From: Leptospirales bacterium
GTDB taxonomy: Bacteria; Spirochaetota; Leptospiria; Turneriellales; JAOUFE01
Direction: 5' to 3'
DNA length: 64,000 nt
Assembly: GCA_040326155.1 (NCBI GenBank)
Contig: JBEQLE010000002.1
Location: forward strand, 1-64,000
The notes beneath the pieces were generated by a model. That model did no database searches. It worked only from the letters and a program-made list of their open reading frames with translations, and had not been told where the DNA came from. Position numbers and translations under genes: made by a program. Positions 1,786 to 63,328 of this stretch are shown piece by piece. Within the stretch, counting starts at the first letter, position 1; every line of letters begins with the position of its first letter.

Positions 1786-1786
1786 G

Positions 1787-3592: not shown

Positions 3593-3597
3593 AAAAT

Positions 3598-7741: not shown

Positions 7742-7743
7742 CA

Positions 7744-8613: not shown

Positions 8614-8675
8614 CGCATAATGGCTATCAGTAATTTATAATTTGATGACAAAATGAAATTAATAAGAAAAGAAAA

Positions 8676-11784: not shown

Positions 11785-11794
11785 TAATTTGCCA

Positions 11795-12880: not shown

Positions 12881-12883
12881 CAG

Positions 12884-13588: not shown

Positions 13589-13622
13589 GGTCGAGCAATA
13601 TAGTTAATTTAATGGAGAAAAA

Positions 13623-17699: not shown

Positions 17700-19712
17700 A
17701 TGTATAATACTAACCACAAAGATATTACAGGCTATCGTCCTCATATTGACGGCTTACGTGCTGTCGCTGTTTTAGCTGTAATCGTGTATCACTTTAGCAT
17801 GAAATTATTGCCCGGTGGTTTTGCTGGTGTAGATATTTTCTTTGTTATCTCCGGCTATGTCGTGACGGCCACAATTTTTCGCTACGAAAGCAACAGCCTG
17901 AAAGAGTACTTGCTCTCTTTTTATGCCAGGCGAGCGAAAAGAATTCTACCGAATTTAATTCTTGTAGTTCTGGTCTTTTCAGTGGTCAGTTTTTTGTTTA
18001 TTCCTCCGATCAAAACCGGAGTGATAATGAAAACGGCGTACTACTCGTTATTTGGCGTCAGCAATTTTTATCTGGCTCACACCAATTTTGATTATTTTGG
18101 TATAGGGGGTAACTTTAATCCGTTTACCCATACATGGTCTTTAGGAGTTGAAGAACAGTTTTATGTTATATACCCGTTAATTATATACGCAATTTATTTT
18201 TTCTTCAAAAAATCCCATAAGATCGGACTATCACTAATCATTTTCCTTGGAGCTCTGTCTATTGGCATTTCTTTGTATTTAGTGATGAATAATCCCACAA
18301 ATGCATACTATTATATGCCTAGCCGATTTTGGGAACTCCTCGCCGGGGGCGGTTTATTTTTAGCGAAGGCTGGCGGTTTTCAACCTGAAAAAAAGCTATC
18401 GTATAAGAGCGCTACCGCGTGGCAATTCATTGGCGCAGTGTTAATTGCACTTGGTCTTGTTTACGCTTCGCTTGACAACGGTTTTCCGTTACCGACAGTT
18501 TTGCCCTCCATAATCGGAACAATGATTGTAATAATGATCGGTACGGCAGGAAATAATCCGGTTGCCCGTTTTTTATCAGCAAAACCCATTGTATATATCG
18601 GGCTTTTATCGTATTCATTATATCTTTGGCATTGGCCGGTTTTTACCATATTTCGATGGTCAATCGGTTTGGATACTTTTGGCACAGCAGCGGCTGCTAT
18701 TATTTTGACATTTATTTTCGCGTGGTTGGCTTATACTTACATAGAACAGCCTTTTCGAAAAGTAAAGGTTGTGAATATTCAATATAAAGTGCTCGTAATT
18801 GCCGTCATCTCTTTGGTTTTCACCGGATTTATCGTTAAAAAGGGCCATAAGAAATTCAAGAGATTATCCAATAATGGATATAATCCCATTATTTTTCAGA
18901 ACATTGATGTTCCGACAAAGCAATGGCCCCCAAGTATTAAGGAATGTCATTATAAATACTATAAAGACTCTGAAGAAGATGCGATTAAACGATGTTTAAG
19001 TAGAAATATAAATCCTGAACCGTCCCGTACAGTTTTTTTGTTAGGCGATTCGCATGTTCAAGCTCTTTCGTTTATGGTCAACGATGCTTTTAAAGATTCA
19101 AAAACGCAAGTTAACCAGATGCATAATAATGACATCCCTAAGATTTTAAATAATGAAAGCCCGGAACCTCTCTCTTTTGAATTTGTAGCCAGACACGCCA
19201 AACAGGGCGATCTTGTAATCGTCAGTTATTTTCATGGAAAATATTTCAATACACAATACCATATACCATTGGATTTAGAACCGATGGAGCAGGATAAAGT
19301 ATATGCAAAGTATCAAAATAGTTTGCAGTATTTTACCGAATTTGCCAAAAAACTTTCAAAAAAAAAGGCAAATCTTCTACTGATTATTGACGTACCACAA
19401 ATGAAAAATCCCGTACGAGTACAGCAATGCATTGTTCAGAAAAAACTTGATTTACCAAATGCATGCGATGTATCATCAAAACAGGCCCTACATTCTCGTA
19501 AACCAATGACTTTGCTGATTAATGAATTATCCGGGACAATTGACAACATATACTCATGGGATCCTTTTCCTATTGTTTGTCCCGGCCCGGTATGCCGGTT
19601 CCATGATGAGCGCGGGTTCATCATGAGTGACCATAACCATATTTCAAGAGAAATGTCGGAGTCTATGGGTGGTGAATTTCGAAAATACTTGCTTCAAATA
19701 GATTTAATGTAA
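17700..19712 (+). CDS. OafA-like O-acyltransferase (Acyltransferase_3 + periplasmic SGNH)
   Basis: YRPHIDGLRAVAV, GVDIFFVISG, HTWSLGVEEQFY and SYSLYLWHWP; SGNH motifs GDSH and DHNH. Confidence 0.92.
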   Translation: MYNTNHKDITGYRPHIDGLRAVAVLAVIVYHFSMKLLPGGFAGVDIFFVISGYVVTATIFRYESNSLKEYLLSFYARRAKRILPNLILVVLVFSVVSFLFIPPIKTGVIMKTAYYSLFGVSNFYLAHTNFDYFGIGGNFNPFTHTWSLGVEEQFYVIYPLIIYAIYFFFKKSHKIGLSLIIFLGALSIGISLYLVMNNPTNAYYYMPSRFWELLAGGGLFLAKAGGFQPEKKLSYKSATAWQFIGAVLIALGLVYASLDNGFPLPTVLPSIIGTMIVIMIGTAGNNPVARFLSAKPIVYIGLLSYSLYLWHWPVFTIFRWSIGLDTFGTAAAAIILTFIFAWLAYTYIEQPFRKVKVVNIQYKVLVIAVISLVFTGFIVKKGHKKFKRLSNNGYNPIIFQNIDVPTKQWPPSIKECHYKYYKDSEEDAIKRCLSRNINPEPSRTVFLLGDSHVQALSFMVNDAFKDSKTQVNQMHNNDIPKILNNESPEPLSFEFVARHAKQGDLVIVSYFHGKYFNTQYHIPLDLEPMEQDKVYAKYQNSLQYFTEFAKKLSKKKANLLLIIDVPQMKNPVRVQQCIVQKKLDLPNACDVSSKQALHSRKPMTLLINELSGTIDNIYSWDPFPIVCPGPVCRFHDERGFIMSDHNHISREMSESMGGEFRKYLLQIDLM

Positions 19713-19916: not shown

Positions 19917-20159
19917 ATGAGTAACGCAGATCAAATAATTAAATATATTACGGATGAGATTTTAGAGGATGAGGATCAAGTGATTGATGAGCAAACATCT
20001 CTTTTTGACGGGGGAGTTCTGGATTCTTTGAACCTAGTTACACTTATTTCATTCCTGGAAGATACTCATAAAATTAAAATAAAATCCTCAGAGGTAACTC
20101 TTGAAAATTTAAATACGGTTTCAAATATGATTAATTTTATTGATAAAAAATTAGCTTGA
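19917..20159 (+). CDS. Acyl carrier protein (DltC-like), cassette 1
   Basis: LFDGGVLDSLNLVTLISFLE contains the phosphopantetheine Ser; acidic 80-aa protein. Confidence 0.92.
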   Translation: MSNADQIIKYITDEILEDEDQVIDEQTSLFDGGVLDSLNLVTLISFLEDTHKIKIKSSEVTLENLNTVSNMINFIDKKLA

Positions 20160-21229
20160 GACAGATGAATAGACAATATCGAATATTACTTTGGTTCGTA
20201 TTCAGTTTTGTAACACTACAGGTTTTCGGGGAAGTACTTTTATCTATGGACTACCCATGGAAACTCAGTGTACTTGAACCATACCTGCTTCGGGGGAAGC
20301 AAGATGCATGGGTGCATAATGCATTTGAAATCCAAAGATTAAAGAAACTGGCTAAAACCGATAAAGAAATTAAATTAATCGTGTATTTGGGCGGCTCGGT
20401 TTGTGCTTCCGGAATAACCTCGGATGAAAAAGTCAGCAAACAACTTTCGACAGCACTTAAAAAGTCGGTTGTTTTTAGCCGACTTTGTTCCCCTTACAAG
20501 TCATTTGCCGATGAACTTAAAATAGTAGAAGAGCTTGGGGCAATCAATGCTACGATAATAATAAATACTGAAATTGGTAGATTTAGTCGGCCGAATGAAA
20601 AACAATTAGTAACTAGGAAGGATAAAAGTAAGTATTCATATAATAAATATTTCTACATACCTGTTACCGAAAGTATCAAAACTATATTTAAAGAATACAA
20701 TATTTCAATAGAGCTAAATCAGCATTTCAGATTATGGAAAACAGCTAAAGCATTGGGAATATCGATTCGAAAAAGATTTGTTAAACGTAAAAAATTGACC
20801 TATCATTATAATGGATACGTGTCGGGGACCCCTGTTAATGAAGACCATAAAACAGAGATAGAAGCTAGATTGACGGAAAGTAAAGGTAAATGGGGACAAA
20901 CTCAGGAATTTCAAGTTAATTTTTCACTCTTGAAAATGGCTATCGAAAAAGCCCAGTTGAATCAGAATCGTGTAATTTTAGTAGAGACTCCGGTGAACCC
21001 TTTGTTTGTTAAATATACCGAAGCAAACAGGTCTGAATATGAGAGTATTTTAAATCAAATTATAAAGTCACAAGGCCTGGGCTATCTCGATTTGCGGTAT
21101 GCTCTTAACTGGAAACCTGAAGAGTTTCGAGATTTGCATCATATGATTCATCCTGGCCCGGACCGATTTACCGCGATATTGGCCAAACGACTTAGTGAAA
21201 TTTTATTAAATATGGATTTACATAAATGA
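20156..21229 (+). CDS. Membrane-anchored SGNH/DltD-like acyltransferase, cassette 1
   Basis: N-terminal TM helix, VYLGGS (candidate catalytic Ser), ETPVNP, and C-terminal FRDLHHM (DxxH); lies between the ACP and the MBOAT. Confidence 0.7.
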   Translation: MRQMNRQYRILLWFVFSFVTLQVFGEVLLSMDYPWKLSVLEPYLLRGKQDAWVHNAFEIQRLKKLAKTDKEIKLIVYLGGSVCASGITSDEKVSKQLSTALKKSVVFSRLCSPYKSFADELKIVEELGAINATIIINTEIGRFSRPNEKQLVTRKDKSKYSYNKYFYIPVTESIKTIFKEYNISIELNQHFRLWKTAKALGISIRKRFVKRKKLTYHYNGYVSGTPVNEDHKTEIEARLTESKGKWGQTQEFQVNFSLLKMAIEKAQLNQNRVILVETPVNPLFVKYTEANRSEYESILNQIIKSQGLGYLDLRYALNWKPEEFRDLHHMIHPGPDRFTAILAKRLSEILLNMDLHK

Positions 21230-22404
21230 TTTTTTTTAACGAGTATTTTGTTTTGGCATTATTAGCCGCTCCCGTGATTTATTGGAAATTTGTACCTGAA
21301 AAGTATAGAAACCTGTTTATTATATTTTTTGGATTTATTGGTTTATCCTTTGTTCAGTTAAATTTCAGTATTTTCCTGATGTTAATCGTTGTGTTTGTAT
21401 TTTACGCGGCCCGCTTTATGCAACGATCCCATAAAGGCAGAGTATTAACTTTAATAATTATCGTCCTGACATTATTGCTTGCAGGTTTTAAATATTTTAA
21501 GGTTTTTTATCTAGCAATTTTTGAAGCTGAAACTGATTTTTCTAAAAGCTACCTGGTGCCGCTTGGTTTATCATATCTGATCTTTAAACTGATTGCCTAT
21601 GTTGTCGACATTTTTCGAGAAGAAATCAAAGAATCTAGTTTGCAAGGTTTACTTGCCTTTATCTTTTTCATACCAAGTTTTCCTGCCGGTCCGATTGAAA
21701 GATATCAACATTTTATTTCGGGAAGACGCAATAGCTTTGATTCCACGTTTTATCTCGCAGGCTTGAAGAGATTGACCATTGGCTATTTTAAAAAAGTTGT
21801 TCTTGTAAACTTTTTATTAACATACATCGTAAACACAAAGCTCTCCGGAATTCTGGATACAGACCAGGGAGCATTATATGGTTCTTTCATTGCATTGTCC
21901 TTTCTGGTAGGTTCTCTGGTTTACGCTTATATCGATCTGTCAGCCTATGCGGATATTGCCATAGGTTACGGGCAATTATATGGCTATCAAATATGTGAAA
22001 ATATGAATTATCCGTTATTTGCCCAAAACCTGAGTGAATACTGGCAGCGCTGGCACATGTCTCTATCCCAGTGGTGCCGCAATAATGTCTATTTCCCGAT
22101 GCTAGGGTCGACGCGTAACAATAATATTTCTTTATACGCTAGTTTTCTGGTAATGGGCTTATGGCATTATGCAAGTTTAAACTGGATATTGTGGGGTCTC
22201 TGGCATGCCAGCGGTATAATCATATATTCAAAATTGAATCGATTTCGAAAGAAGAAAAAGATTAAAAAACTTTTGCCAAAAAAAATTGGGTACGCTGTTG
22301 GCATGGCAATTACCGTTATCTATTCCGGTTTAGGTTTTGCCTTTATTACCCAGAAGACGACATCGGAAGCTTTAAAACTGCTTGGCAAAGTATTTGGTCT
22401 ATGA
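21226..22404 (+). CDS. MBOAT acyltransferase (DltB/AlgI family), cassette 1
   Basis: PLGLSYLIFK, AGPIER, YWQRWHMSLS and GLWH (catalytic His) motifs. Confidence 0.93.
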   Translation: MIFFNEYFVLALLAAPVIYWKFVPEKYRNLFIIFFGFIGLSFVQLNFSIFLMLIVVFVFYAARFMQRSHKGRVLTLIIIVLTLLLAGFKYFKVFYLAIFEAETDFSKSYLVPLGLSYLIFKLIAYVVDIFREEIKESSLQGLLAFIFFIPSFPAGPIERYQHFISGRRNSFDSTFYLAGLKRLTIGYFKKVVLVNFLLTYIVNTKLSGILDTDQGALYGSFIALSFLVGSLVYAYIDLSAYADIAIGYGQLYGYQICENMNYPLFAQNLSEYWQRWHMSLSQWCRNNVYFPMLGSTRNNNISLYASFLVMGLWHYASLNWILWGLWHASGIIIYSKLNRFRKKKKIKKLLPKKIGYAVGMAITVIYSGLGFAFITQKTTSEALKLLGKVFGL

Positions 22405-22411
22405 GGTTAAC

Positions 22412-22534
22412 ATGGTAGAAAGAATCAAAGAAGCAATGATAGGTTTTATTTGGGCACTGTTTGTGCTCTTTATCTTGTTTGTTCATTACACCTTATGTGA
22501 AGCAGTTCCGGTTTTTCGATATGAAGGTTTTTAG
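22412..22534 (+). CDS. DltX-like 40-aa membrane peptide (not in the ORF track)
   Basis: Hand translation: MVERIKEAMIGFIWALFVLFILFVHYTLCEAVPVFRYEGF*. GAGG RBS at 22403-22406, one TM helix, C-terminal FRYEGF; fills the MBOAT-VOC gap. Confidence 0.85.
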   Translation: MVERIKEAMIGFIWALFVLFILFVHYTLCEAVPVFRYEGF

Positions 22535-22537
22535 AAA

Positions 22538-22942
22538 ATGGAATTTCACCATATTGGAATCGCTGTAAAAAAATTAACGGAATCGTCCGTTTTGTTTGAA
22601 AATATTCTGGAAACTGCCTTTTCAAATACCGAAGATGTTGATTCACAAAAAGTTCAAGTGACTTTCGGCGGCGGAGTGGAATTATTGCAGGCGACGGATA
22701 TCCATTCCCCGCAATTTCCCATGATGAAACATCCCATTCTCAGCCATCTCGATAAGCACGGAGAGGGGATTCATCATATTTGTTTTTCAGTTGAAAATCT
22801 GGAAGCAAAAGTAAACGAACTGAAAAAATCCGGCATAAAACCATTGACCAATGATCCGATCATTGGGGCCGGCGGCAAAAAGGCAATTTTTCTACATCCG
22901 AAAGACTGTAATGGGACTTTAATAGAGTTGATGGAAAAGTAA
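22538..22942 (+). CDS. VOC-superfamily protein, methylmalonyl-CoA epimerase-like
   Basis: FHHIGIAV, VELLQ, GEGIHHICF and FLHPKDCNGTLIELME metal-ligand motifs. Confidence 0.85.
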   Translation: MEFHHIGIAVKKLTESSVLFENILETAFSNTEDVDSQKVQVTFGGGVELLQATDIHSPQFPMMKHPILSHLDKHGEGIHHICFSVENLEAKVNELKKSGIKPLTNDPIIGAGGKKAIFLHPKDCNGTLIELMEK

Positions 22943-24427
22943 ATGAGCGATATAATTAATTCCCCCCTCGATTTCTTAACGGAGCATTCATTGAAAAGCC
23001 CCGGAAAATGTGCTATAAGAATCAACAATATTGATTATACCTATGATATGTTTTCACGCGAAGTAGGACTTTTCGCGAAACTGTTCAAGTCGCACGGAAT
23101 CGGGCAAGGCAGTTTGGTTGCAGTATACTCTGATCATGAGTTTGACGTATTATGCACTATTTTTGCATTATGGACAATCGGTGCCGTTTGTATACCAATA
23201 AATCCAACTTATAAAACGGACAAATTACAGCAAATCGAATCGACAGTTCGGCCTGATTTTGGTTTTTATTCTGTTGATTATGATATAACATACGATCGCC
23301 AATATCCGATGTCTTTGATTGAAAAATCAAATGAACCCGGAAATGTGGAGGTTGTACACCCGAAAGCGGATGACCCGGCTATGATTATGTTTACTTCGGG
23401 AACATCGGGAGTTCCCAAAGCGGTCCCCATTACGCATGGTGCGATTGCAAGGAATTCACTGAGTACGGCAAGTCGGCTTGGTTTAACGAAGGAAGATGTT
23501 CTTTTTATTAATACGCCCCCTTATACGACTAGTTCAATTATTCATGTATTAACAATGATGTCACAAGGCGCTCAGACCGTTATTGATCGAAGTTTTTTAT
23601 TTGGCGCCGCCATTATCGATAAAATAGAAGAGCATCAATGTACTTGCTTTGGGGGAGTTCCGATTCATTTTACTCGATTACTTGCTGCCTTAGAAGAAAA
23701 AGATGCACCGAAAAAACTTCATAAGCTAATTAATTCAGGGGATCATTTATCTGTTCCTGTGCTGGAAAAACTACAAAAATTAATGCCGCAGGCCGCCATG
23801 TACTGCATTTACGGGCTTACTGAGGTAGCTGGCAGACTGTGTGTTTTACCTCCGGAACTCGTACGCAGCAAATCAGGTTCCGTTGGATTCCCTATTGAAG
23901 GGATGTCCGTAACGATTAGAGGTTCCAAGCTGGAGCTCCTTCCTGCCGGGGAAACAGGCGAGGTTTTTATTCAGGGCCCGAATTTAATGAAAGGTTACAT
24001 AAATAACCCGGAGGCTAATGAAAAATCGATGACCTCGGTGGGATTTGCCACCGGCGACTTCGGTTATTTGGACAGCGACGGTTGCCTTTATTTAAAAGGG
24101 CGGAAAGACGATATTTTTAAGGTTGGCGGTGAAAAAGTCAGCGTGAAAATGATAGAGGAAGCTCTTGTTGGTTACGAAGAATTTGCGGACGCAATGGTTG
24201 CTCCAGAATACGATGAACACATGGGTAATTACATACCCTGTCTTTATTATGTTCTAAAAAAAGATGCAACCTTTAGTCGTAAGAAACTATTGGGGATACT
24301 CAGGAAACGTCTTCCGCAAAACCATATACCCACAAAGTTTGTGGAACTCGAAGAAATACCGCGAACAAGCTCGGGTAAGTCCATCAGAAAAGTTCCTTCG
24401 CCGGGGCAACCATTGAAGCAACAATAA
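22943..24427 (+). CDS. ANL-superfamily adenylating enzyme (acyl-ACP/CoA ligase), cassette 1
   Basis: FTSGTSGVPK, YGLTE, ATGD, GRKDD.FKVGG and PRTSSGK motifs. Confidence 0.92.
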   Translation: MSDIINSPLDFLTEHSLKSPGKCAIRINNIDYTYDMFSREVGLFAKLFKSHGIGQGSLVAVYSDHEFDVLCTIFALWTIGAVCIPINPTYKTDKLQQIESTVRPDFGFYSVDYDITYDRQYPMSLIEKSNEPGNVEVVHPKADDPAMIMFTSGTSGVPKAVPITHGAIARNSLSTASRLGLTKEDVLFINTPPYTTSSIIHVLTMMSQGAQTVIDRSFLFGAAIIDKIEEHQCTCFGGVPIHFTRLLAALEEKDAPKKLHKLINSGDHLSVPVLEKLQKLMPQAAMYCIYGLTEVAGRLCVLPPELVRSKSGSVGFPIEGMSVTIRGSKLELLPAGETGEVFIQGPNLMKGYINNPEANEKSMTSVGFATGDFGYLDSDGCLYLKGRKDDIFKVGGEKVSVKMIEEALVGYEEFADAMVAPEYDEHMGNYIPCLYYVLKKDATFSRKKLLGILRKRLPQNHIPTKFVELEEIPRTSSGKSIRKVPSPGQPLKQQ

Positions 24428-24447
24428 GGTGAAAGTGATAAAATAGA

Positions 24448-25848
24448 ATGACTATGCAAAGAATAACAGTAATTGGCTTAAGCGGCTCAATACGTTCCAA
24501 TCACAACCATTTTAAAACATTGAATCAAATGATTGTAAAAGCAAAAGATCGTGCTGAATTTACCACCTTATTGAAAAATTCGGATTATGTCTACTCGAAT
24601 ACCGATATTGCGTTATCTGTAGCCCTTCTCGGAGCAAAACAAAACGATGCCGATGTAAAGATTATTTCTCTTACCGATTTATTCCGGCATAGAAATGAAA
24701 AGCTATACGAAAATCTGACGGAGATGGTAACCGTCAATGATATTGAAGAACTTGATACGTTGAGTATTGATCAAGAACATTTAAAAAATATTTCTAACGA
24801 CATTAATAAGGCCGATGGAATAATCATGGGGACCCCGGTATATTTTGGTGATCGTTCATCGGTTGCAAATAAAATATTACAATTAACCAGCATTCAAAAC
24901 CAACTGAGAAATAAGGCAATCGGCGTGGTATCGGTCGGAGCCAAACGCAATGGTGGTCAGGAAACTGCAATTATATATACTCTATACGAAGTCCTGATGC
25001 AAGGTAGTATTATTACGGGAAACGGTCCGAAAACCGCCCAGTATGGTGGAACGGTTGTGGCGGGTGATTCGGGTATGGCGATTGAAGATAACTTTGGTAT
25101 GGACACTTCTTACGGAACCGGGAAACAAGTGTCACAACTATCCAAAATATTAAAAGCGGGCCAAGAAAAATCCGGAGGTTCTCCCAGAGTAATATTTTTA
25201 CTTTCTATGGATACTCCAGAGAAAAAATATAACAAGATTTTAGATGAGTATATTTCACGCCAGCAAGAACTGACCAATTATGAGACTGTCGATTTAACTG
25301 ATAAAAATATATATCGTTGCATTGCATGTAATGTTTGTCCGTCCGTAACAGTTAAGAAAAGGAAGGAATCCGAAGTTTCTCCGTATACTTGTGTTATTCA
25401 AACGGAAAAAGATTACATGAAAGAGCTCCGTTTAAAGCTTATAGACGCTGATGTTATTATTATTGTCGGAGTAAATTCAAATGAGAACTTAACATATCGT
25501 TATCAGGCTTTTATGGAGAGAACCCGGTTTATTCGCAGGGAAGACTTCGAATTGACTAACAAAGTAATAACAAGTTTATTAATTAATGATGTTGGCTCCA
25601 TGCATAATCCGATCTTTGGAGTAAAAGTAGTTACTTCCTTTATTCGCCATAACACATTTATGACTACTCCCTTGCAAATTATGATGCATAATAATACAAT
25701 AATTAGAGAAGACTCTTTAGATGATTCTTTCCCAAATTTCAAGCAAATTCTAAACGGAAGAAAAATGGTACAACCGATCAAAGTAAGTTATAAAGCTACG
25801 GGATATGCAAATAAATCACTAGACAACTCGGAGACCAAACGCCAATAA
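24448..25848 (+). CDS. Tandem flavodoxin-like (FMN reductase/Isf-type) protein with a Cys cluster, cassette 1
   Basis: GLSGSIR, GTPVYFG and GAKRNGGQE in the N-domain; CIACNVC-x17-C in the second domain. Confidence 0.8.
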   Translation: MTMQRITVIGLSGSIRSNHNHFKTLNQMIVKAKDRAEFTTLLKNSDYVYSNTDIALSVALLGAKQNDADVKIISLTDLFRHRNEKLYENLTEMVTVNDIEELDTLSIDQEHLKNISNDINKADGIIMGTPVYFGDRSSVANKILQLTSIQNQLRNKAIGVVSVGAKRNGGQETAIIYTLYEVLMQGSIITGNGPKTAQYGGTVVAGDSGMAIEDNFGMDTSYGTGKQVSQLSKILKAGQEKSGGSPRVIFLLSMDTPEKKYNKILDEYISRQQELTNYETVDLTDKNIYRCIACNVCPSVTVKKRKESEVSPYTCVIQTEKDYMKELRLKLIDADVIIIVGVNSNENLTYRYQAFMERTRFIRREDFELTNKVITSLLINDVGSMHNPIFGVKVVTSFIRHNTFMTTPLQIMMHNNTIIREDSLDDSFPNFKQILNGRKMVQPIKVSYKATGYANKSLDNSETKRQ

Positions 25849-25924
25849 ACTTTCAGGAATGTTTTTAAAGGATATTAAACACCGGGATTTCAAAAAAGAT
25901 AACAATGAATCTAAAGGACATTAA

Positions 25925-26764
25925 ATGAAAAAATATGAATTTACAACAAAAAAGTCGGTTGATTCGGTAATCGAACAATTGAAACTAAACGGAATTGCCC
26001 ATATTCCCGGCTATCTAAAGAAAAATGTAATAACGAACTTAAACGCCGAGTTTGAAAGGTTGCTGACAGAAAAACTTCCATGTACATCAGCTCAAACTAA
26101 ACATCCGATTAATGTGGATGGCCGAGCTGCGCGATTTAATCCGTGGCATTCCAGCGCTGACAAAGAGTTTGCTACGACAACAGCTGTGTATAAGGATCCG
26201 TTTATGAAAGAGGTGTCAGAATCTTATTTCAGTCCTCACAAATATAATTTAAATGAGCAAGTATTTATAACACATGAATTGCCAAGTAAAGTTCCAATTT
26301 TACCCTGGCATATCGATCGTATACAATCATTAAAATTCTGGTTTTACTTGTTAGACACCACAGCTAAAGATGGAGCTTTCGAATATTGTCCTGGGACTCA
26401 TTGGGAAGGAAGATACCGGGCGGGATACCATATGCTCAGGGGAGTGGCCGTTAAAGATCTACCAAATGATATACAAGGTATGTCCATAAGAAATCCGGTT
26501 ACGGTTGAAGCTAATGCCGGTGATTTGTTGATTTTTGATCCTGATGGTTTTCACCGGGGGAGTATCGTGAAACCCGGTGGCGAAAGACGCGTAATGCGAG
26601 GGCATACTTACCCGAAAGAAGGTCGCAGGTATGAAGATAAGCGATTTACACCGGGCTGGTGGTTGAGTTCTCGATTTAATCTGGCCAAAAAATATGAAAA
26701 GCATGGCACACGTATCCTGGGCGATGCAGTAAAAGATGACACCTTAAACAGAAATGCATACTGA
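25925..26764 (+). CDS. PhyH-family Fe(II)/2-oxoglutarate dioxygenase
   Basis: PWHID (HxD), DGAFEYCPGTH and AGDLLIFD...FHRG motifs. Confidence 0.87.
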   Translation: MKKYEFTTKKSVDSVIEQLKLNGIAHIPGYLKKNVITNLNAEFERLLTEKLPCTSAQTKHPINVDGRAARFNPWHSSADKEFATTTAVYKDPFMKEVSESYFSPHKYNLNEQVFITHELPSKVPILPWHIDRIQSLKFWFYLLDTTAKDGAFEYCPGTHWEGRYRAGYHMLRGVAVKDLPNDIQGMSIRNPVTVEANAGDLLIFDPDGFHRGSIVKPGGERRVMRGHTYPKEGRRYEDKRFTPGWWLSSRFNLAKKYEKHGTRILGDAVKDDTLNRNAY

Positions 26765-26818: not shown

Positions 26819-27763
26819 ATGAAAAAAATATTAATATTTGGTACGGGTTTTATCGCAAATGCGTTGATTCAGCACATAAATTCCGTTTATACCGGTACGA
26901 AAATCTCTGTTATTTATAACAAGACCAGAATAAAAGGAGAAAATGCCGAAGGGATAACTCAGTATTCCTTGGATGATAATTTGAAAAACGTTCTCTCTAT
27001 AGAAAAACCTTCGTATATTGTATGTTTATACGGAATATCGTTTGTACCATCTAATATTGATCCGATGGAGTCTATTGATAAAAATGTGTTAACTACGCTG
27101 AATTTTCTCGAAATTATATATCAAACTGGTTACGCAGAAAACCTGGAAAAAATACTAATTATCGGTTCTGCCAGCGAATATGGTAAATTTTACAAAGAAG
27201 CAATTTCAGAAGATTTCAAATTGCACCCCACTTCACTTTACGGATTATCTAAAATATTTTTATATAATACTGCACTTTATTATAAGGAAAGAGGGCTACC
27301 AATTGTTTATGGAAGGCAATACAATACTATTGGAGTTGATCAACGTGATGTTTTTGCGCTACCTTCTTTTGCCCGGCAAGTGGCCAAAATAGAAAAAGGA
27401 CTTCAAGAACCCATTATGGACGTAGGTGATTTAACTCAGGAAAGAGACCTTCTAGATGTAAGAGACACAGTTTTGGCATATACTTTACTACTTAAAAAAG
27501 GGGAAATTGGCGAGGTTTACAATATTGCCTCGGGTAATTATACATCAATGGAAAATGTAGTAAATATTTTACTGGAACAATCGAGCATAGCAATGGCCGA
27601 TATAAAAATTGAATCGAATGTGAAAAAATTTTCCGAAAATAATAGTCTGAGCAAAAGATTATGGGGTGATATAAGTAAATTACGATCACTCGGTTTTAAA
27701 CCAAAGTATACGTTAAAAGAAACAACTTTGGATATTTTGAATTACTGGAGAGCGAATGTTTGA
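26819..27763 (+). CDS. NDP-sugar reductase/epimerase (extended SDR, RMD-like)
   Basis: GTGFIA, GSASEYG, PTSLYGLSK, SFARQVAKIE and RDLLDVRD motifs. Confidence 0.8.
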   Translation: MKKILIFGTGFIANALIQHINSVYTGTKISVIYNKTRIKGENAEGITQYSLDDNLKNVLSIEKPSYIVCLYGISFVPSNIDPMESIDKNVLTTLNFLEIIYQTGYAENLEKILIIGSASEYGKFYKEAISEDFKLHPTSLYGLSKIFLYNTALYYKERGLPIVYGRQYNTIGVDQRDVFALPSFARQVAKIEKGLQEPIMDVGDLTQERDLLDVRDTVLAYTLLLKKGEIGEVYNIASGNYTSMENVVNILLEQSSIAMADIKIESNVKKFSENNSLSKRLWGDISKLRSLGFKPKYTLKETTLDILNYWRANV

Positions 27764-29663
27764 CAGCGGAGAAATACGTACTCTATTTAAAGAGAAGCAT
27801 AAATATAAAAAAACTTATATTATAGCTGAAGTGGGAATTAATCATAATGGGGACTTAAACAAAGCTCTGAATTTAATTAAAGCCGCAAAAGAATCCGGAG
27901 TAAACGCAGTCAAATTTCAAAAACGAGATTTAAAAAGTATTTATTCTGAAAATGTACTGAACGATGCAAATGCTTCTGAGTGGACTTTTGAATACCTTAT
28001 TCCACTATTGAAAGAATTTGAACTATCAGAAGATGATTATCTAAAAATAAGAAATTATTGCGATACATTGAAGATTGACCTGATTATTACTCCATTTGAT
28101 GAAAAGTCTGCGGAATTTGTAGCAAATTTGGGTATTAGTGCCTTTAAAATAGCTTCGGCAGATATGACGAATATCCCTCTCGTAAAGAAATGCGCTGGAT
28201 ATAATATTCCGTTATTGATTTCTACGGGAATGTGGAATGACGAAGATATTGAAAAGTGTGCCAACATCTATAAAACTGAGCGTATAGATTTTGCCTTTCT
28301 CCTGGCCCAATCAACATATCCCGCGCCATTTGAATCTTTGAAGCTTGATTATATTAATCGGTTGAAAGAATTTTCAGATGTCGTTGGATATTCTGGACAT
28401 GAACGAGGCACTTTTATTCCGGTCGCGGCTACGGCGATGGGGTGTCAGATTATTGAAAAACATATTACCTTTGATAAAAATGAAAAAGGTCCAGATCATA
28501 AGGCATCCATGTTGCCGGCAGAATGGAATGAAATGGTATATCAGTTGCGTACTTTGGAGAAAGCAAGAGGTTCGCAGAAGAGAGTAAATCAGGCAGAGAT
28601 ACAGAACAAGGAGGCGTTTGCAAAATCTGCCGTACCAATTAGAGATTTGCCCGAAGGACATGTTTTAATCAAATCTGATATTATATTTAAAGCTCCCGGA
28701 AAAGGGATATTTCCACATGACATAGCAAATTACTTTGGGAAAGTATTAAAAAAAACCGTAAAAAAAGAACACTATATTAACACGACCGACTTTGAGGATA
28801 CCATTGAAATTTCTCAATGGGAAAGTTTCCAGTTTTCCAAGCAGTGGGGAATAAAATGCCGCTTTCATGATTTTGAAGAGTATAATATACTAAACAGTCC
28901 GTGCGTAGAGTTTCATTGTTCTCAGACAGATCTCGATATCGATTTTAAACCTGGTGAAGTTTCGAAATCTGAGTTAATCGTTCATGCCCCGGAAATTTAC
29001 GACAGAAAACTTGTGGATATATGTGTAGAAGATGAAACTAGTGTTAAACAATCTTTAGATATTCTTCAGCGGTCTATCGATAAGACGCTGTCTCTGTCTA
29101 AGTATTTTTCGAAAGAGAAAAAACCCAAACTGGTCATCCATGCGGGTGGCATGTTCTTAAATACGGCCAATCTAGTAGACACGGAAGAACTTACCAATAG
29201 GGCAATTGAAAATTTTAAATTGCTTAAATTCAATTCCGATGATATAGATATATTACCCGAGAACTTGCCGCCACGACCGTGGTACTTAGGCGGAGAATGG
29301 TTTCAGCACGGATTTATGCTGGCAAAAGATATGATTCATTTTTGCGACAGTTTAGGTCTGGGCATGACATATGATATATGCCATGCTAGTTTATATTGCA
29401 ACGAATACGACATTGATCTTGCGAGCTATACAAAAGAAGTCATGCCTTTTACAAAACATATCCATATCTCCGATGCATACGGAATTAATGGGGAAGGCGT
29501 ACAAATTGGCGAAGGACATATTGATTTCGAAAAAGTTCTAAAAGAGGTTGAACCTTATCAGTTTACATGGGTGCCGGAAATTTGGAGTGGTCATTTACAC
29601 TACGGCGCAGGTACTTATAAATGTATGCAAATATTAAATTCAAAGTTCTTTAAAGCCTTATAG
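27756..29663 (+). CDS. neuB: NeuB-family nonulosonate synthase fused to SAF and a C-terminal sugar-isomerase-like TIM barrel
   Basis: IIAEVGINHNG, KFQKR, KIASAD, GYSGHE, IEKHIT and GPDH motifs; C-terminal ENLPP, DICH, HIHISDA and VPEIW. Confidence 0.85.
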   Translation: MFDSGEIRTLFKEKHKYKKTYIIAEVGINHNGDLNKALNLIKAAKESGVNAVKFQKRDLKSIYSENVLNDANASEWTFEYLIPLLKEFELSEDDYLKIRNYCDTLKIDLIITPFDEKSAEFVANLGISAFKIASADMTNIPLVKKCAGYNIPLLISTGMWNDEDIEKCANIYKTERIDFAFLLAQSTYPAPFESLKLDYINRLKEFSDVVGYSGHERGTFIPVAATAMGCQIIEKHITFDKNEKGPDHKASMLPAEWNEMVYQLRTLEKARGSQKRVNQAEIQNKEAFAKSAVPIRDLPEGHVLIKSDIIFKAPGKGIFPHDIANYFGKVLKKTVKKEHYINTTDFEDTIEISQWESFQFSKQWGIKCRFHDFEEYNILNSPCVEFHCSQTDLDIDFKPGEVSKSELIVHAPEIYDRKLVDICVEDETSVKQSLDILQRSIDKTLSLSKYFSKEKKPKLVIHAGGMFLNTANLVDTEELTNRAIENFKLLKFNSDDIDILPENLPPRPWYLGGEWFQHGFMLAKDMIHFCDSLGLGMTYDICHASLYCNEYDIDLASYTKEVMPFTKHIHISDAYGINGEGVQIGEGHIDFEKVLKEVEPYQFTWVPEIWSGHLHYGAGTYKCMQILNSKFFKAL

Positions 29664-29828
29664 GATTTGCAGAATTATAATATCATTATTCAAGAAAATT
29701 ACTTGACCGGGAATTTTAACTGACGGGTTAATCTATTACAAACACTTAATGCAGCCGTTTTAATATAAAAAGAATCTGTAAAGTTATAAAGATAAGTCAA
29801 TACTTTTAAAAGTAAAAGAGAGTTCATT

Positions 29829-30515
29829 ATGAAAGCACTAGCGATAGTTCCAGCCAGAGGGGGGTCCAAGCGACTACCCAAAAAAAATTTACGTCATCTT
29901 GGCGGTAAACCACTGGTTTGTCACACGCTCGATGCTGTTCAAGAATCCGAAAAGTTTGCAAAAGTAATTTTGTCTTCCGACGATTCGGACCTTCTCGCTT
30001 TAGCAGAAAACTATGAAATCGTTATACCTGAAAAAAGAGAGGAAAGGCTCTCGGGTGATAAAGTTACCGTACTCACACTGATTAATGAAATCGCCGCACG
30101 TCCTGATATAAAAGATGAATTTGACGTTATTTCTCTTTTACTGCCAACATGCCCTTTTCGAAACGCCTCTCATATTCAAGGCGGCATGGATTTACTCGAC
30201 AAGGATGTCGACGGTGTTATCAGTGTAACTGAATACGAATTTCCCCCTCAGCTTGGCATTACACTCGATAACAATATTATAAAACCCGTTTTCGAACCCT
30301 GTCCTTTAATCACGGGCAACACAAGATCACAAGACCAGGATGTGATATATCGACCAAACGGGGGTTTTTATATTCAATGGATGGAGAAATTTTTAATAAA
30401 TCAAAATTTCTGGAAAGGAAAAGTAAAAGGGTACGCTATGGGTAGAATGGATTCACTGGATATTGATACGGAACTGGATCTTGAATATGCTGAATTTGTT
30501 TATAATAAGAAATAA
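29829..30515 (+). CDS. neuA: Acylneuraminate cytidylyltransferase family protein
   Basis: AIVPARGGSKRLPKKN, PTCPFR, PNGGFY and SLDIDT motifs. Confidence 0.88.
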   Translation: MKALAIVPARGGSKRLPKKNLRHLGGKPLVCHTLDAVQESEKFAKVILSSDDSDLLALAENYEIVIPEKREERLSGDKVTVLTLINEIAARPDIKDEFDVISLLLPTCPFRNASHIQGGMDLLDKDVDGVISVTEYEFPPQLGITLDNNIIKPVFEPCPLITGNTRSQDQDVIYRPNGGFYIQWMEKFLINQNFWKGKVKGYAMGRMDSLDIDTELDLEYAEFVYNKK

Positions 30516-30579
30516 AGTAATAACCGGGCAATCCAATTTCACGCATTATAAAAATTGAGAGCATATCAAGGAGTAATAA

Positions 30580-31536: not shown

Positions 31537-31635
31537 TCCTGAGTCGCTTTATTAATATTTTATCGTTCCATCGATATTCGATAAACAGAAGTTTAAAAAT
31601 TCTGTATATATAAAAAGTACATTTGAACTAACAAT

Positions 31636-58976: not shown

Positions 58977-60377
58977 ATGAATACCGTTGTTAAAATTATA
59001 GGTCTAGTCGGTTCCATTCGTTCAAACCACAATCATTTGGATGAGCTTTCTCAGATCATCCATGTGTCTGCAGATCTTGATACGCTTTTGAAAAACATCA
59101 AGGCTTGCCCTCATGTGTTTTCAAATACCGATATTGCTGTAGCAGCAGCACTCATGGGGGCAAAAAGTAACGGCGCCGCCGTTGAAATTATTTCTCTCGT
59201 TGATTTGTTCCGCCACCGGAGCGAAGATTTATACAAAGAACTGGATAGCTTTGCGACGATCGATGATCTTGATGAAATTGACACGTTATCCATTAATGAT
59301 AAAGCCCTTGTTTCGATTATGCAATCCCTGACAGAGTGTCATGGTATCATCCTCGGGTCTCCCGTTTATTTCGGAGATCGTTCTTCGGTCGCGAATAAAA
59401 TTCTTCAACTGACCGGTAAATCTGATATTTTGAAAGATAAAGCTTTTGGGTCGGTTGCCACCGGTGCGAAGCGAAATGGGGGTCAGGAGACGACAATTAT
59501 TTACACGCTATACGAAGCCATCCTTCAAGGAGCAGTTGCCGTGGGCAATGGGCCAAAAACAGCTCAGTACGGTGGGACCGTATATGCCGGCGATGTCGGT
59601 AAGGCCGTTGAAGACGTCTTCGGTATGGATACCTCTTTTGGAACGGGTCGTCAGGTCGCGCAGCTGGCAAAAATTATTCAAGCCGGTACGATCAGTCCGG
59701 CAAAGCGAAAACCCAAAACCCTGTTTTTAGTAACTATGGACAATGCCGAAAAAAAATATCAGAAAACTCTGGAAGATTATATTAAAAAGCAAAAACATGA
59801 GTTTGACCATGAAGTTGTTAACCTGACTACGGAAAATATTTATCGGTGTATTGCCTGCAGTGCCTGTCCCTCGCCTGCTTTAACCGAAAAGTATAAAGAT
59901 CAGGAAAATCCATATACTTGTGTCGTCCAAACTTCGAAAGATAATATGAAGTATCTGCGGGAAAAAATGGTAGATGTCGACGTTATCGTTCTAGTTGGAG
60001 TAAATACCAATGAACCGCTTACATATCGCTACCAGGCTTTTATGGAGAGGACCAGGTTTATACGACGTAACGATTTCGAGCTTACGAATAAAATTATTCT
60101 GAGTTTAAATATTGAGGAAGTCGGGGCGACTAAGAACAATATTTTTGACGTTAAGGCAATTACGTCTTTTATTCGTCATAATACCGTCATTGTGAAACCG
60201 TTACAGTTGATTTTTCACAAGGGTAAAATTCTGGTAGAACCTGATTTCGCAGAATATTTCCCCATTTTTGATAAAATTGTAAATGGACGTTTTGAAATCG
60301 ATCCTTTTGAAGTGAGTTATAAAGCGACAGGGTATGATAACAAAACACTGGACCATACTGCGGCAATCCGAAGGTAA
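58977..60377 (+). CDS. Tandem flavodoxin-like Fe-S protein, paralog of 24448-25848 (cassette 2)
   Basis: Same length (466 aa); shares GSIRSNHNH, PVYFGDRSSVANKILQLT, GAKRNGGQE, CxxCxxC-x17-C and YRYQAFMERTRFIRR. Confidence 0.85.
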   Translation: MNTVVKIIGLVGSIRSNHNHLDELSQIIHVSADLDTLLKNIKACPHVFSNTDIAVAAALMGAKSNGAAVEIISLVDLFRHRSEDLYKELDSFATIDDLDEIDTLSINDKALVSIMQSLTECHGIILGSPVYFGDRSSVANKILQLTGKSDILKDKAFGSVATGAKRNGGQETTIIYTLYEAILQGAVAVGNGPKTAQYGGTVYAGDVGKAVEDVFGMDTSFGTGRQVAQLAKIIQAGTISPAKRKPKTLFLVTMDNAEKKYQKTLEDYIKKQKHEFDHEVVNLTTENIYRCIACSACPSPALTEKYKDQENPYTCVVQTSKDNMKYLREKMVDVDVIVLVGVNTNEPLTYRYQAFMERTRFIRRNDFELTNKIILSLNIEEVGATKNNIFDVKAITSFIRHNTVIVKPLQLIFHKGKILVEPDFAEYFPIFDKIVNGRFEIDPFEVSYKATGYDNKTLDHTAAIRR

Positions 60378-60381
60378 TTGT

Positions 60382-60504
60382 TTAGAAACCCATATAACGA
60401 AACGGGCGAAAACCGGCATTTTTCATGAGTACAACGATGAGAACTACCCAGTATAAGATAGAAAAAAGAAATCCGTAAAACAATGACCTGAATAATAATT
60501 TCAT
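60382..60504 (-). CDS. DltX-like 40-aa membrane peptide (not in the ORF track), cassette 2
   Basis: Hand translation of the reverse strand: MKLLFRSLFYGFLFSILYWVVLIVVLMKNAGFRPFRYMGF*. AGGAGA RBS at 60509-60514, one TM helix, C-terminal FRYMGF; directly follows the MBOAT. Confidence 0.87.
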   Translation of the reverse strand: MKLLFRSLFYGFLFSILYWVVLIVVLMKNAGFRPFRYMGF

Positions 60505-60513
60505 AGTTTCTCC

Positions 60514-61728
60514 TTAATTAAACAGAATTGCAAACGCGTAAGAATACAACTTTACTACAACCTGAAAATCGTGTACGGCTACCATCACAAACACAAATGA
60601 AACAAAATATATTGTAATTATATTACCGGTAATGCGCAGGAACAATGCGCCTGCCTTGTTGTTTTTCATCCGTTTAAACCATCTCATTTCCCGAATTTTA
60701 CCGTAAAAGTTGATTCCAGTTGCATGTAATATTGCCCAGGTTATCCAGTTTAATGTTAATGCGTGCCATATTCCGATGGTCAACATGCTCAGGTAGGTCG
60801 ATATCCAGGCTTTTTTAGTTTTAATTAAGGCTGGAAAAAAAACATAGTCTCGTGTCCAGTTTGATAAAGACATGTGCCACCTTTGCCAGAACATGGAAAG
60901 GTTGCTTGCCAACAGAGGTTTGTTAAAATTTTCCTGATGGGTAAAACCCAGTAATTTAGAAAAAGATTTACTGATTTCCGTATACAACATTAAATCGAAG
61001 TAGGCATGGATGAAAGCGCTAAAACCAAAAAGTGAGAGTTTCAGAAAAAACAAATGGTCTTTCCCACTATCCATATTTTGCATTAGTAAAGGTAACGTTT
61101 TCTCGTATGTGTATTGGTATAAATAATTATCGATAAGCAAAAATTTCACACTTATGGCGGTAAATAGTAAAAGGTAAATATTACGACGGGGCTTTCCGGA
61201 AAACTGTGTTTCGAGATATTTAAAGTCACGAAATCTTTGAATAGGGCCGGCCAGTATTATTGGGAAGAAAAAGACGTATGAATAATAATCTATCGGGTTT
61301 ATATTTTCGAACTCCTTCGGACGATTCGCATAATCAATCATCATCGATAATAACCTGAAATAGTAATAAGAGACGCCTAAAGGTATATATGGATTTTCAA
61401 TGTTCAGAAAATACTGGTAATCTTTTATCAGTAACAAGAGCCCGATGGAGCATAAGACAAACAGAGATAACTTTTTTTTAATCTGTATTTTTTTGTATAT
61501 AAGAATATAAACAATGGTTGATAATAACAGCAGTTGAAAAAATGACCCTACGTCGAGCCAGATTAGAAGTCCACCGGAGATGATAATGATAAGGGACTTT
61601 TTTTTATGGATATTTTCATTTTTAAAAGACCATTCAAGAAAAATGATAATAGATATTACAATAATGATAAAAAAGATTATAAGGTTATCGCCCAGAAAAT
61701 CTGCAATTTCTAAAATAGTTTCCAGCAT
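60514..61728 (-). CDS. MBOAT acyltransferase (DltB/AlgI family), cassette 2
   Basis: PLGVSYYYFR, AGPIQR, ENFNKP, FWQRWHMSLS and GIWH motifs. Confidence 0.93.
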   Translation of the reverse strand: MLETILEIADFLGDNLIIFFIIIVISIIIFLEWSFKNENIHKKKSLIIIISGGLLIWLDVGSFFQLLLLSTIVYILIYKKIQIKKKLSLFVLCSIGLLLLIKDYQYFLNIENPYIPLGVSYYYFRLLSMMIDYANRPKEFENINPIDYYSYVFFFPIILAGPIQRFRDFKYLETQFSGKPRRNIYLLLFTAISVKFLLIDNYLYQYTYEKTLPLLMQNMDSGKDHLFFLKLSLFGFSAFIHAYFDLMLYTEISKSFSKLLGFTHQENFNKPLLASNLSMFWQRWHMSLSNWTRDYVFFPALIKTKKAWISTYLSMLTIGIWHALTLNWITWAILHATGINFYGKIREMRWFKRMKNNKAGALFLRITGNIITIYFVSFVFVMVAVHDFQVVVKLYSYAFAILFN

Positions 61729-61734
61729 AATTTT

Positions 61735-63075
61735 CTATAACGGTTTTAAGTCTTTTAAAAGCCGACCAATTTCCTTTCTATCAATTTTCATCGTCTGGGT
61801 AAAAGGAAAATTTTCCATGGTGTAATATTTATGCGGCAACTCGTTATTTTCAAGTTTACCCTTAAGTTTTTTAATAAGTTCTGAGCGTCCTATTCCGCAA
61901 TCTCCTTCAAACACAAGGCAGATTAAATTTCCCAAGGTGGGGTGTTCCTGCGGGACCACAGCGATGCCGGTCTCGGGAAAAATTTCCGTTACCTTGCCCT
62001 CGATGTGTTTCAAAGAGACTTTATTGCCCCCGACTTTTATTTCATCGTCGCTTCGACCTGCCAGGACCATCACCCCATGGTCTGTTTTAACAATGTCGCC
62101 AGTTGCATGCCACTGTATGGATTTGTCAAAAATGCCGTTGCGAATATATCCCTGGAACAGGAAATCTGACTTTACGTACAACTGCCCTTCTCTGGTCTCG
62201 TACTCCATTCCCTCTATGCAATTGCCGATTCCGTCAATAAGTTCGGGAGCCATCGACGAGTTTACCGGTTGAATAAAAAAGCGACCACCGAGTTCGGCCA
62301 GCCCGTAGACTTTGAAAAAAACAGCTTCGGGAAATTTTGACAGAATACTTGTGATGGAATTTTTATAAATAAAATCTCCGGATGTAAAAAAGAATGCCGG
62401 TTTATAATTCGGTTTGATTTTCGCCAGCGACATTAGTATGTGCATGGGAGAACCCAAAATGGAACAATTTTCATTTTTTTCCAGTATTTCGGGAAGAGAA
62501 TCAATATGATCGAAATCGGAAAAAATTAAAAAACTTTCGGTAATATAATGAACAAGAAAATGACTCAATGCACTCATCAGGTAAGGTTTAAGCATGGTAA
62601 TTCCGGTGAAACCCGAAAGGCCCATCGCGCTTGCCGTTTCTCTGGCATTGTCAAAAAAGTGTTTTTTTACATGGACAATCCCTTTGGGGGTTCCCGTGCT
62701 TCCGGATGAAAAGATGATGGTATCAAAATCTATTTTTTCCATTGCCTCGACTTCCGTGAAATCGGGGTTTTCAGTGATTTGAATTTTTTCATCATTGTAT
62801 TGTATAACGTGAGTGTAGTGTGGAAATATTTTTTTTCCCTGAAAGTGATCTCTTGTCGGGAAAATGACTTTGGCATCGGCTTTCCACGCGGCAAATAATA
62901 TTGTATATAACTCTATTGGGTTTTCAGTGGCGATTAAATAAAAACGTTCGGGAGCCGACGGTATGGCTCCGGTCAATAGGTTGACACGTTCGGAAAACTC
63001 GGTGTCAGTCATCGATGTATCACGATACTGAATCAGTTTCCGGTTTTCGTGTTTGCTTAACAGTTGATCAAGCAT
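61735..63075 (-). CDS. ANL-superfamily adenylating enzyme, cassette 2
   Basis: FSSGSTGTPKG, YGLAE, ATGD, GRSDDEIKVGG and PFTQTMKIDR motifs. Confidence 0.9.
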   Translation of the reverse strand: MLDQLLSKHENRKLIQYRDTSMTDTEFSERVNLLTGAIPSAPERFYLIATENPIELYTILFAAWKADAKVIFPTRDHFQGKKIFPHYTHVIQYNDEKIQITENPDFTEVEAMEKIDFDTIIFSSGSTGTPKGIVHVKKHFFDNARETASAMGLSGFTGITMLKPYLMSALSHFLVHYITESFLIFSDFDHIDSLPEILEKNENCSILGSPMHILMSLAKIKPNYKPAFFFTSGDFIYKNSITSILSKFPEAVFFKVYGLAELGGRFFIQPVNSSMAPELIDGIGNCIEGMEYETREGQLYVKSDFLFQGYIRNGIFDKSIQWHATGDIVKTDHGVMVLAGRSDDEIKVGGNKVSLKHIEGKVTEIFPETGIAVVPQEHPTLGNLICLVFEGDCGIGRSELIKKLKGKLENNELPHKYYTMENFPFTQTMKIDRKEIGRLLKDLKPL

Positions 63076-63328
63076 TGTTATTATTCAACTTGGTTTCAAG
63101 ATAATCGACGATACGATTCACCGTTCCGAGTGTATCAAGTGTAAGGTCGAAAGGGTCGATCGATATGGAAAACTCAGTTTCCATGAACATGATAACCTGC
63201 AGAACATTGATTGAATCGAGAAAGTCATTTTTAAATATTTCTTCATCAACACTTGTCAGTGTTTTTCCAGCGAGAGTTTCCACCTCTCCTTTTATTTTGT
63301 TTATTAGTTTCGCTCTTTCTATGGCCAT
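63068..63328 (-). CDS. Acyl carrier protein (DltC-like), cassette 2
   Basis: FLDSINVLQVIMFMETEF contains the phosphopantetheine Ser. Confidence 0.9.
   Translation of the reverse strand: MAIERAKLINKIKGEVETLAGKTLTSVDEEIFKNDFLDSINVLQVIMFMETEFSISIDPFDLTLDTLGTVNRIVDYLETKLNNNNA

Follow-up and report, generated by a model that had tools for sequence, protein, structure and literature searches.

The window analysed here, the first 64,000 nucleotides of contig JBEQLE010000002.1 from a Leptospirales bacterium (GCA_040326155.1), was found to carry two cassettes in which an acyl carrier protein (ACP), a DltD-like SGNH transferase, a DltB-like MBOAT protein, a DltX-like microprotein and an adenylating ligase are accompanied by a tandem flavoprotein, hereafter FLV. 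The first five proteins very probably share the architecture of a Dlt-type relay, and FLV probably supplies a free acid upstream of the ligase and does not act on the ACP. We tentatively propose that FLV is a new flavin mononucleotide (FMN)/[4Fe-4S] enzyme forming a C-S bond from sulfite, and that three interchangeable routes, including a Dlt-type Tyr-shuttle relay, place the sulfo-acyl group on surface glycans; its carriers would be bacteria from many phyla, an archaeon and viral contigs. Surveyed loci, genomes and contigs are numbered with the letters L, G and C.

Cassette organisation and relay core

The initial annotation had described the eight genes of cassette 1 and placed them in a Wzm/Wzt glycan setting. 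The eight plus-strand open reading frames (ORFs) were present at the positions first assigned and Pfam and NCBIfam bore out each label. The Wzm/Wzt genes were found at 7717-9920, and the entire 64-kb window is a glycan locus with glycosyl-, methyl- and sulfotransferases. The genes and the setting of this cassette had been read correctly, but a second full cassette in the same window had been overlooked. Cassette 2 is a complete, diverged copy at 58977-64545 with its own FLV and with no VOC and no PhyH gene (Table 1). Up to the flavoprotein, the genes of cassette 1 are separated by gaps of 0-20 bp or overlap by 4 bp, and 76 bp follow before the PhyH gene. A promoter scan remained at chance level (57 vs 49.7), and a look for sequencing runs found none listed.

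The ACP of cassette 1 scored 34 bits with the DltC model (cut-off 68). The SGNH protein reached 25 bits with Pfam DltD (cut-off 22.7) and carries GGS81 and D326xxH329; the Gx-S and DxxH motifs were conserved in 22/22 aligned relatives. The MBOAT protein scored 146 bits with the DltB model TIGR04091, far below the 375 cut-off, its His314 was invariant and the sole PDB matches of its profile were DltB structures (6bug/8jem, E 4e-46). It is short and keeps the catalytic His. It has no FxYxxF at its C-terminus, unlike two AlgI-type fused MBOATs of the same genome (C33 and C171).

The 40-aa peptide has GAGG 5' of its ORF, a hydrophobic segment and FRYEGF at its C-terminus. Short hydrophobic ORFs ending in F-x-Y-x-x-F were found three times in the 4.26-Mb genome, and since two of the three sit at the two cassettes, the peptide is no chance ORF. 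The third lies on C20 near 4490 (minus strand), a contig with no MBOAT. A FRYxxF peptide was found in 24 of the 30 MBOAT-bearing FLV loci (22 with a Met start, 2 without), and 2 of the other 6 have a fused-type MBOAT only. F35, R36, Y37 and F40 were invariant across 25 aligned peptides, a set selected on that pattern. The predicted MBOAT-peptide complex scored 0.59 compared to 0.00 for the best control, with contact agreement of at least 94% between runs and a partner pLDDT of at least 75, which lends weak support to the pairing. The mark used for such scores was reached by 116 of 157 solved pairs and 2 of 215 mismatched pairs; at scores of 0.60 or less, just 18 of the solved pairs reached it, as did both mismatches. 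The score may stem from resemblance to DltB-DltX.

Overall, given the MBOAT, the SGNH protein, the peptide motif and the weakly supported complex, the relay is expected to work like Dlt. The family matches, the catalytic residues and the FxYxxF peptide agree with the five-part relay recognised in the initial annotation. A degraded duplicate of the second SGNH gene was also seen at 58115-58823 (minus strand), in two frames with 35-55% identity to residues 216-393 and with the catalytic Ser region unmatched.

Ligase and its pocket

Alignment to gramicidin synthetase modules placed Thr196 of the ligase at the amino-binding Asp235 site, where the Asp235-type positions follow GrsA numbering. The Asp was present in 0/41 members of the ligase clade (FLV loci and the window supplied 32, and 9 were obtained independently), and Ser236, His240, Ser301, Gly330 and Arg331 were invariant in 41/41. 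In VinN, a distal carboxylate is held by Ser299/Arg331, as described in passages of PMC7756342 and PMC12186527. The missing Asp, the invariant Ser/His/Ser/Arg set and the VinN precedent together point to a small anionic non-amino substrate. Judged on these residues, the pocket is fit for a small acid that has a second anion and no amino group, and the enzyme cannot be DltA, in line with the earlier prediction of an acyl group other than D-Ala. Like VinN, BolO and AfcQ, the ligase has an Arg at 331 for a distal anion and would load a free-standing carrier. Unlike them, it belongs to a clade with Thr/Val-Ser-His at the amino-binding site and would feed a glycan, whereas those enzymes require Asp230 for the amino group and act on aspartate types.

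A true dlt operon adding D-alanine would explain why the five parts match and why the MBOAT profile matches DltB only. It is nevertheless very improbable, given the absence of Asp235 throughout the clade, a peptide gene that stands after the MBOAT gene and not before it, and scores below cut-off with the models of DltA (TIGR01734, 146 bits vs 560), DltB and DltC.

Residue 278 is Gly in ligase 1 and Leu in ligase 2, and owing to Leu278 the pocket of ligase 2 would be tighter. Ligase 2 belongs to a different subclade from ligase 1, the grouping being taken from a quick tree. FLV loci were also found to use unrelated ligases, namely a true malonyl-CoA (coenzyme A) synthetase in L045 and FadD7/oxalate-ligase-like enzymes.

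The tandem flavoprotein

FLV appears from its sequence to be a split iron-sulfur flavoprotein, a fused pseudo-dimer. The predicted model (pLDDT 92) showed two flavodoxin domains, with fold matches of Z 18-19 and root-mean-square deviations of 2.3-3.0 Å over 154-176 residues; no solved Isf was listed among these matches. Each half aligned to the single-domain Isf-like protein of L210 (98.5% and 87% probability), and the C-half by itself had no solved relative by sequence search. The FMN loops are retained in the N-half and the four Cys of the cluster lie in the C-half, not in the same domain. The CxxCxxC...C residues were invariant in 150/150 aligned rows, and so were K166, N192 and Q198 in the same number of rows. 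The motifs suggest FMN and [4Fe-4S] as cofactors. FLV thus resembles Isf/WrbA in its flavodoxin fold with FMN loops, and differs in the fusion, in the placing of FMN loops and Cys cluster in separate halves, in its insertions and in its ties to acid-activating ligases.

FLV has over 1,000 relatives (1019 matches in one search), and another search at 1e-30 gave 160 representatives. FLV is otherwise rare (1/60 related genomes); the same-family genome G001 carries FLV locus L001. No FLV match was found in the plasmids or phages searched and no ligase match in the plasmids. The viral contigs L215-L222, some of which may be cellular, carry FLV down to a minimal 313-325 aa. Most also have an ATP-grasp ligase, and several a PIG-L-type de-N-acetylase-like ORF; an exchange of N-acetyl for a new acyl group is possible there. 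P0173, in which FLV is joined to enolase, has a junk-like linker and was left out of use.

Gene neighbourhoods of the flavoprotein

The survey covered 160 FLV loci: of 180 genome loci and 276 metagenome loci, the 80 best of each were taken. At 90% identity they collapsed into 133 clusters. An adenylating ligase only was found in 49 clusters, an ATP-grasp ligase only in 50, both in 2 and neither in 32. The two ligase families were thus rarely found together (Fisher p 5e-12, with kin not independent). Just 8 of 50 ligase-free loci had a 3 kb flank on both sides, and nearly every FLV locus with enough flank held an activating ligase, usually within 3 kb (43/53 and 57/59). Enolase-family genes (MLE subgroup) occurred in 43 of the 133 clusters, 39 with ATP-grasp and 2 with the adenylating ligase, and VOC genes in 4 clusters, all with the adenylating ligase and 0 with ATP-grasp. 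The two contexts switched approximately 8 times on the FLV tree compared to a shuffled mean of 36, a descriptive figure as kin share labels. FLV1 clusters with FLV2 and L001, and ligase 1 with L022-L024; because they group with different loci, the FLVs look interchangeable. Since two ligase families, each with its own optional epimerase, pair with FLV, FLV most likely makes a free acid. On this reading, both ligase families activate the acid of FLV, and two unrelated epimerase folds optionally set its alpha-carbon.

Among other partners, MBOAT was found in 29 clusters, AAC(3)-fold transferases in 13 and PhyH in 0. Carriers with a species or strain name include Curvivirga aplysinae (L049, MBOAT route) and Roseivirga sp. 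E12 (L063, ATP-grasp route). In the initial annotation, VOC, FLV and PhyH had been taken to form part of an assembly line, each of them tailoring the acyl group on the ACP. Contiguity of the genes in the window and the confinement of VOC to ACP/ligase loci would fit such a line, but an ACP match was found in only 3 of the 59 loci that pair FLV with ATP-grasp, FLV and ligase stand on separate contigs in G1211, and PhyH was present in 0/160 loci. Tailoring on the ACP is accordingly quite improbable, and PhyH was rejected as a member of the system. The co-occurrence expected for core and accessory genes was found in part: FLV accompanied the complete ACP, ligase, MBOAT and SGNH core in 23/160 loci from five named phyla, but VOC was present in only 4/160 and PhyH in none.

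Natural fusions were seen at L117:4765-6903 (ATP-grasp and enolase-family domain) and L146:5105-7807 (adenylating ligase and AAC(3)-fold transferase). In the Scalindua-type loci L015, L017 and L093-L104, a BioC/Tam-like methyltransferase accompanies FLV and a ligase is lacking. One FLV clade (L043, L055, L074 and L138) stands beside sCache sensors or chemoreceptors, and L043 also carries a dihydroorotate-dehydrogenase-B/glutamate-synthase-like oxidoreductase.

VOC and PhyH proteins

The VOC protein was read as epimerase-like, and this was upheld. It resembles methylmalonyl-CoA epimerase (E 9e-20 to human MCEE) and keeps the metal and acid-base residues. It differs in scoring just below the family cut-off (TIGR03081, 107 bits vs 115; the L009 relative reaches 125), in an insertion common to L022 and L024, and in its setting, as no match to methylmalonyl-CoA mutase (PF01642) was found in the window's genome, which is 94.7% complete (control positive in 8/14). 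For PhyH, no viral relative was found.

Survey from the ligase

Five genome samples, each of 351-401 genomes, were searched with the ligase profile, and only 4 candidates per genome were scored. In one sample, 2 new matches near 495 bits were kept and 30 at 315 bits or less were set aside as generic ligases; the samples around G063 and G065 (351 and 401 genomes) gave no match. Of the 9 ligase-clade loci obtained, 2 had FLV adjacent and 3 had it at another place in the genome; in 4, whose genomes may be incomplete, it was not found. The three were G826 (the L064 stretch, already part of the FLV survey), G1211 (other contig, with ACP/SGNH/MBOAT) and G1287 (with enolase and ATP-grasp). FLV is strongly enriched in ligase genomes over the 1/60 background, yet not obligatory. 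The closest cassettes found by this route, in G190 and G340, consist of ACP-SGNH-MBOAT-peptide-ligase without FLV or VOC; together with the scarcity of VOC, this speaks against the fixed composition first assumed.

These results also bear on the view that FLV is a mere electron-transfer or oxidant-detoxifying Isf/WrbA protein hitchhiking in glycan loci while the ligase uses an ordinary metabolite. The WrbA/Isf fold and motifs, the four ligase genomes in which FLV was not found and the stand-alone FLV of L001 and the Scalindua-type loci are in its favour. It is unlikely, however, in view of the carboxylate-activating ligase in nearly every well-flanked locus, the separate FLV copy at each window cassette, the rarity of FLV among relatives and the invariant K166, N192 and Q198.

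Nature of the acid

Sulfur genes were found beside FLV in three unrelated loci: L052 and L062 have cysH directly adjoining it, and L074 has the run FLV-cysD-cysN-cysH. G1966 and G1962 have a canonical cysI-linked cysH as well as the FLV-side one; in G1965 the FLV-side cysH is the sole copy, and no sulfite-reductase match was found. In addition, TauE lies 29 bp downstream in L152/L153 and a cysteine dioxygenase 3.1 kb away in L068. A private PAPS (3'-phosphoadenosine 5'-phosphosulfate) reductase is a pattern of Bacillus sulfolactate genes. Sulfonates are isosteres of the dicarboxylates considered below and sulfonate analogues bind methylmalonyl-CoA epimerase, a point for which a literature search gave no paper. 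The extra or sole cysH beside FLV suggests sulfite and a sulfonated acid. A sulfonate as the acid of FLV, stated together with the relay, is a real possibility that falls short of probable.

Several points weigh against the sulfonate and the pathway built on it. CysH stands beside FLV in only 3/133 loci and was noticed post hoc, and no co-substrate gene is conserved, so that the C-S chemistry is a guess. The locus sulfotransferases account for the second cysD-cysNC of the window. In L045 and two similar loci, the gene after FLV encodes a true malonyl-CoA synthetase (672 bits, cut-off 558); this neighbour and the methylmalonyl-type VOC fit a plain diacid. FLV was not found in 4/9 ligase-found genomes, including the two closest cassettes; VOC was present in so few FLV loci, all with the adenylating ligase, and PhyH in none. 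Finally, the acceptor glycan is inferred from gene position alone.

The same relay could thus carry a dicarboxylate, either a 2-substituted malonate (e.g. methylmalonate, tartronate) or a hydroxy-diacid (e.g. malate), with FLV catalysing a redox step on a diacid of the oxo/hydroxy or ene kind. Arg331 of VinN binds a carboxylate (passages of PMC7756342 and PMC12186527), bona fide MatB adjoins FLV in L036/L045/L046 and the VOC is epimerase-like. In 10 Scalindua-type loci, FLV is followed by a BioC/Tam-like carboxyl methyltransferase, in L055/L074/L138 by sCache sensors, and FLV-free cassettes could take a diacid from ordinary metabolism. A dicarboxylate would leave the extra cysH/cysDN copies beside FLV unexplained, the three extra polar invariants would suit a tetrahedral oxyanion, and common diacids need no dedicated synthase. 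We regard it as a possibility only slightly less likely than the sulfonate.

Contig C162 of the window's genome carries cysH-cysI-cysD-cysNC; a cysD-cysNC-cysQ set, additional to this assimilatory one, lies at 904-4383 of the window. The operon of L036, L045 and L046 is a non-glycan one with aldehyde dehydrogenase, PPOX-type flavoprotein, FLV and malonyl-CoA synthetase. An apparent CysN in L064 was actually LepA. The PAPS-reductase-domain ORF of L080, which gave no match to CysH models at 1e-40, was not counted, nor were the APS (adenosine 5'-phosphosulfate)-kinase-like neighbours in L002 and L128, which need not be sulfur enzymes.

Proposed pathway

In the pathway built on the sulfonate, FLV would produce a free acid that is small and anionic, most likely a short carboxylate bearing a sulfonate from sulfite, of the sulfolactate, sulfoacetate or 2-sulfo-acid type. 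The ligase, whose pocket residues are in place, would adenylate the carboxyl group while Arg298 and the Ser/His residues hold the far anion, and would load the ACP. The VOC protein, where present, could set the stereochemistry at the alpha-carbon of the thioester. By analogy with DltB/X/D, and with the catalytic residues present, the MBOAT would hand the acyl group over to the peptide's Tyr37, from which SGNH Ser81 would take it and esterify the exported Wzm/Wzt glycan in the periplasm. Negative charge would thus be added where Dlt removes it. In other loci, amino sugars may receive this same acid as an amide, either through ACP with a transferase of the AAC(3)-fold or hexapeptide type or through the ATP-grasp ligase with the enolase-family epimerase.

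Features and neighbouring genes

Table 1. Genes of the two cassettes in the window.
Feature	Position	Strand	Remarks
ACP, DltC role	19917..20159	+	PF00550; phosphopantetheine Ser37 in DSL; PDB matches are peptidyl carrier proteins and DltC
DltD-like membrane-anchored SGNH transferase	20156..21229	+	PF04914 above cut-off; Ser81, Asp326, His329
DltB-like short MBOAT without fused FxYxxF tail	21226..22404	+	PF03062; His314
DltX-like 40-aa membrane microprotein, proposed acyl-shuttle Tyr37 in FRYEGF	22412..22534	+	
Methylmalonyl-CoA-epimerase-like VOC, optional	22538..22942	+	His5, Gln37, Glu48, His80, Glu130
Adenylating ligase, predicted anionic non-amino acid	22943..24427	+	Thr196 (Asp235 site), Ser197, His201, Ser265, Gly297, Arg298
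Tandem FMN/[4Fe-4S] flavoprotein (FLV), proposed acid maker	24448..25848	+	FMN loops in N-half, C291/C294/C297/C315 in C-half
PhyH-family Fe(II)/2-oxoglutarate oxygenase, outside conserved system	25925..26764	+	PF05721
FLV2, convergent on cassette 2	58977..60377	+	57% identical to FLV1
Second DltX-like peptide	60382..60504	-	C-terminal FRYMGF
Second DltB-like MBOAT	60514..61728	-	37% identical to first
Second ligase	61735..63075	-	28% identical; same Ser/His/Ser/Gly/Arg set; Leu for Gly at 278
Second ACP	63068..63328	-	33% identical to first
Second SGNH, 398 aa	63349..64000	-	Start at contig 64545, past window edge

Directly upstream of cassette 1, an AT3-SGNH acetyltransferase at 17700-19712 forms a third acylation system; it was rejected as a member of the system described here, being present in 0/160 FLV loci. 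Genes at 11789-16194 encode two DegT aminotransferases, WbqC, a methyltransferase and a 221-aa DegT-like ORF with a weak C-terminal match only. Downstream, 26819-33141 holds NeuB fused to a xylose-isomerase-like barrel (635 aa), a cytidine monophosphate (CMP) transferase, a dihydrodipicolinate synthase (DHDPS)-like aldolase and a glycosyltransferase. This set may be an unusual ulosonic-acid pathway, to which PhyH may belong.

Comparison with known systems and meaning

Gram-negative dlt operons adding D-Ala exist, and the relay logic itself is already known; what would be new is the combination of a Gram-negative glycan locus, a non-amino anionic acid and FLV. The Dlt pathway (DltA/C/B/X/D) and its FxYxxF acyl-shuttle motif are described in passages of PMC12148441, and the mechanism also in parts of PMC13721041. 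An adenylating ligase, a carrier protein, a short MBOAT, a separate FxYxxF microprotein and an SGNH protein are common to Dlt and the present cassettes. Unlike Dlt, the cassettes stand in a Gram-negative Wzm/Wzt glycan locus, their ligase lacks the amino-binding Asp and has Arg331, their motif is FRYxxF, a flavoprotein and an optional epimerase are linked, and the family scores are far below cut-offs. PatA/PatB and the AlgI-type O-acetyltransferases share an MBOAT, an SGNH protein and a Tyr shuttle motif with the cassettes, but they draw on acyl-CoA as donor and have the motif fused to the MBOAT; according to passages of PMC12148441, MBOAT-SGNH pathways other than Dlt have neither a carrier protein nor a DltX-like microprotein.

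No report of a Gram-negative glycan-locus relay with a non-amino anionic acid and FLV was found in the open-access literature, although Schultz 2023, the original DltX paper, may already list Gram-negative microprotein systems. No report of sulfo-acyl glycan modification was found there either. Because a carrier protein and a microprotein are both present in this family, which lies outside Dlt and would use no D-Ala, the relay appears to be a general exporter of unusual acyl groups. Here it would add negative surface charge, the reverse of Dlt, and FLV would define a widespread, unnamed acid-making step. If sulfite is the substrate of FLV, this would be a new route to organosulfonates, with a bearing on marine sulfur cycling and on phage-receptor masking.

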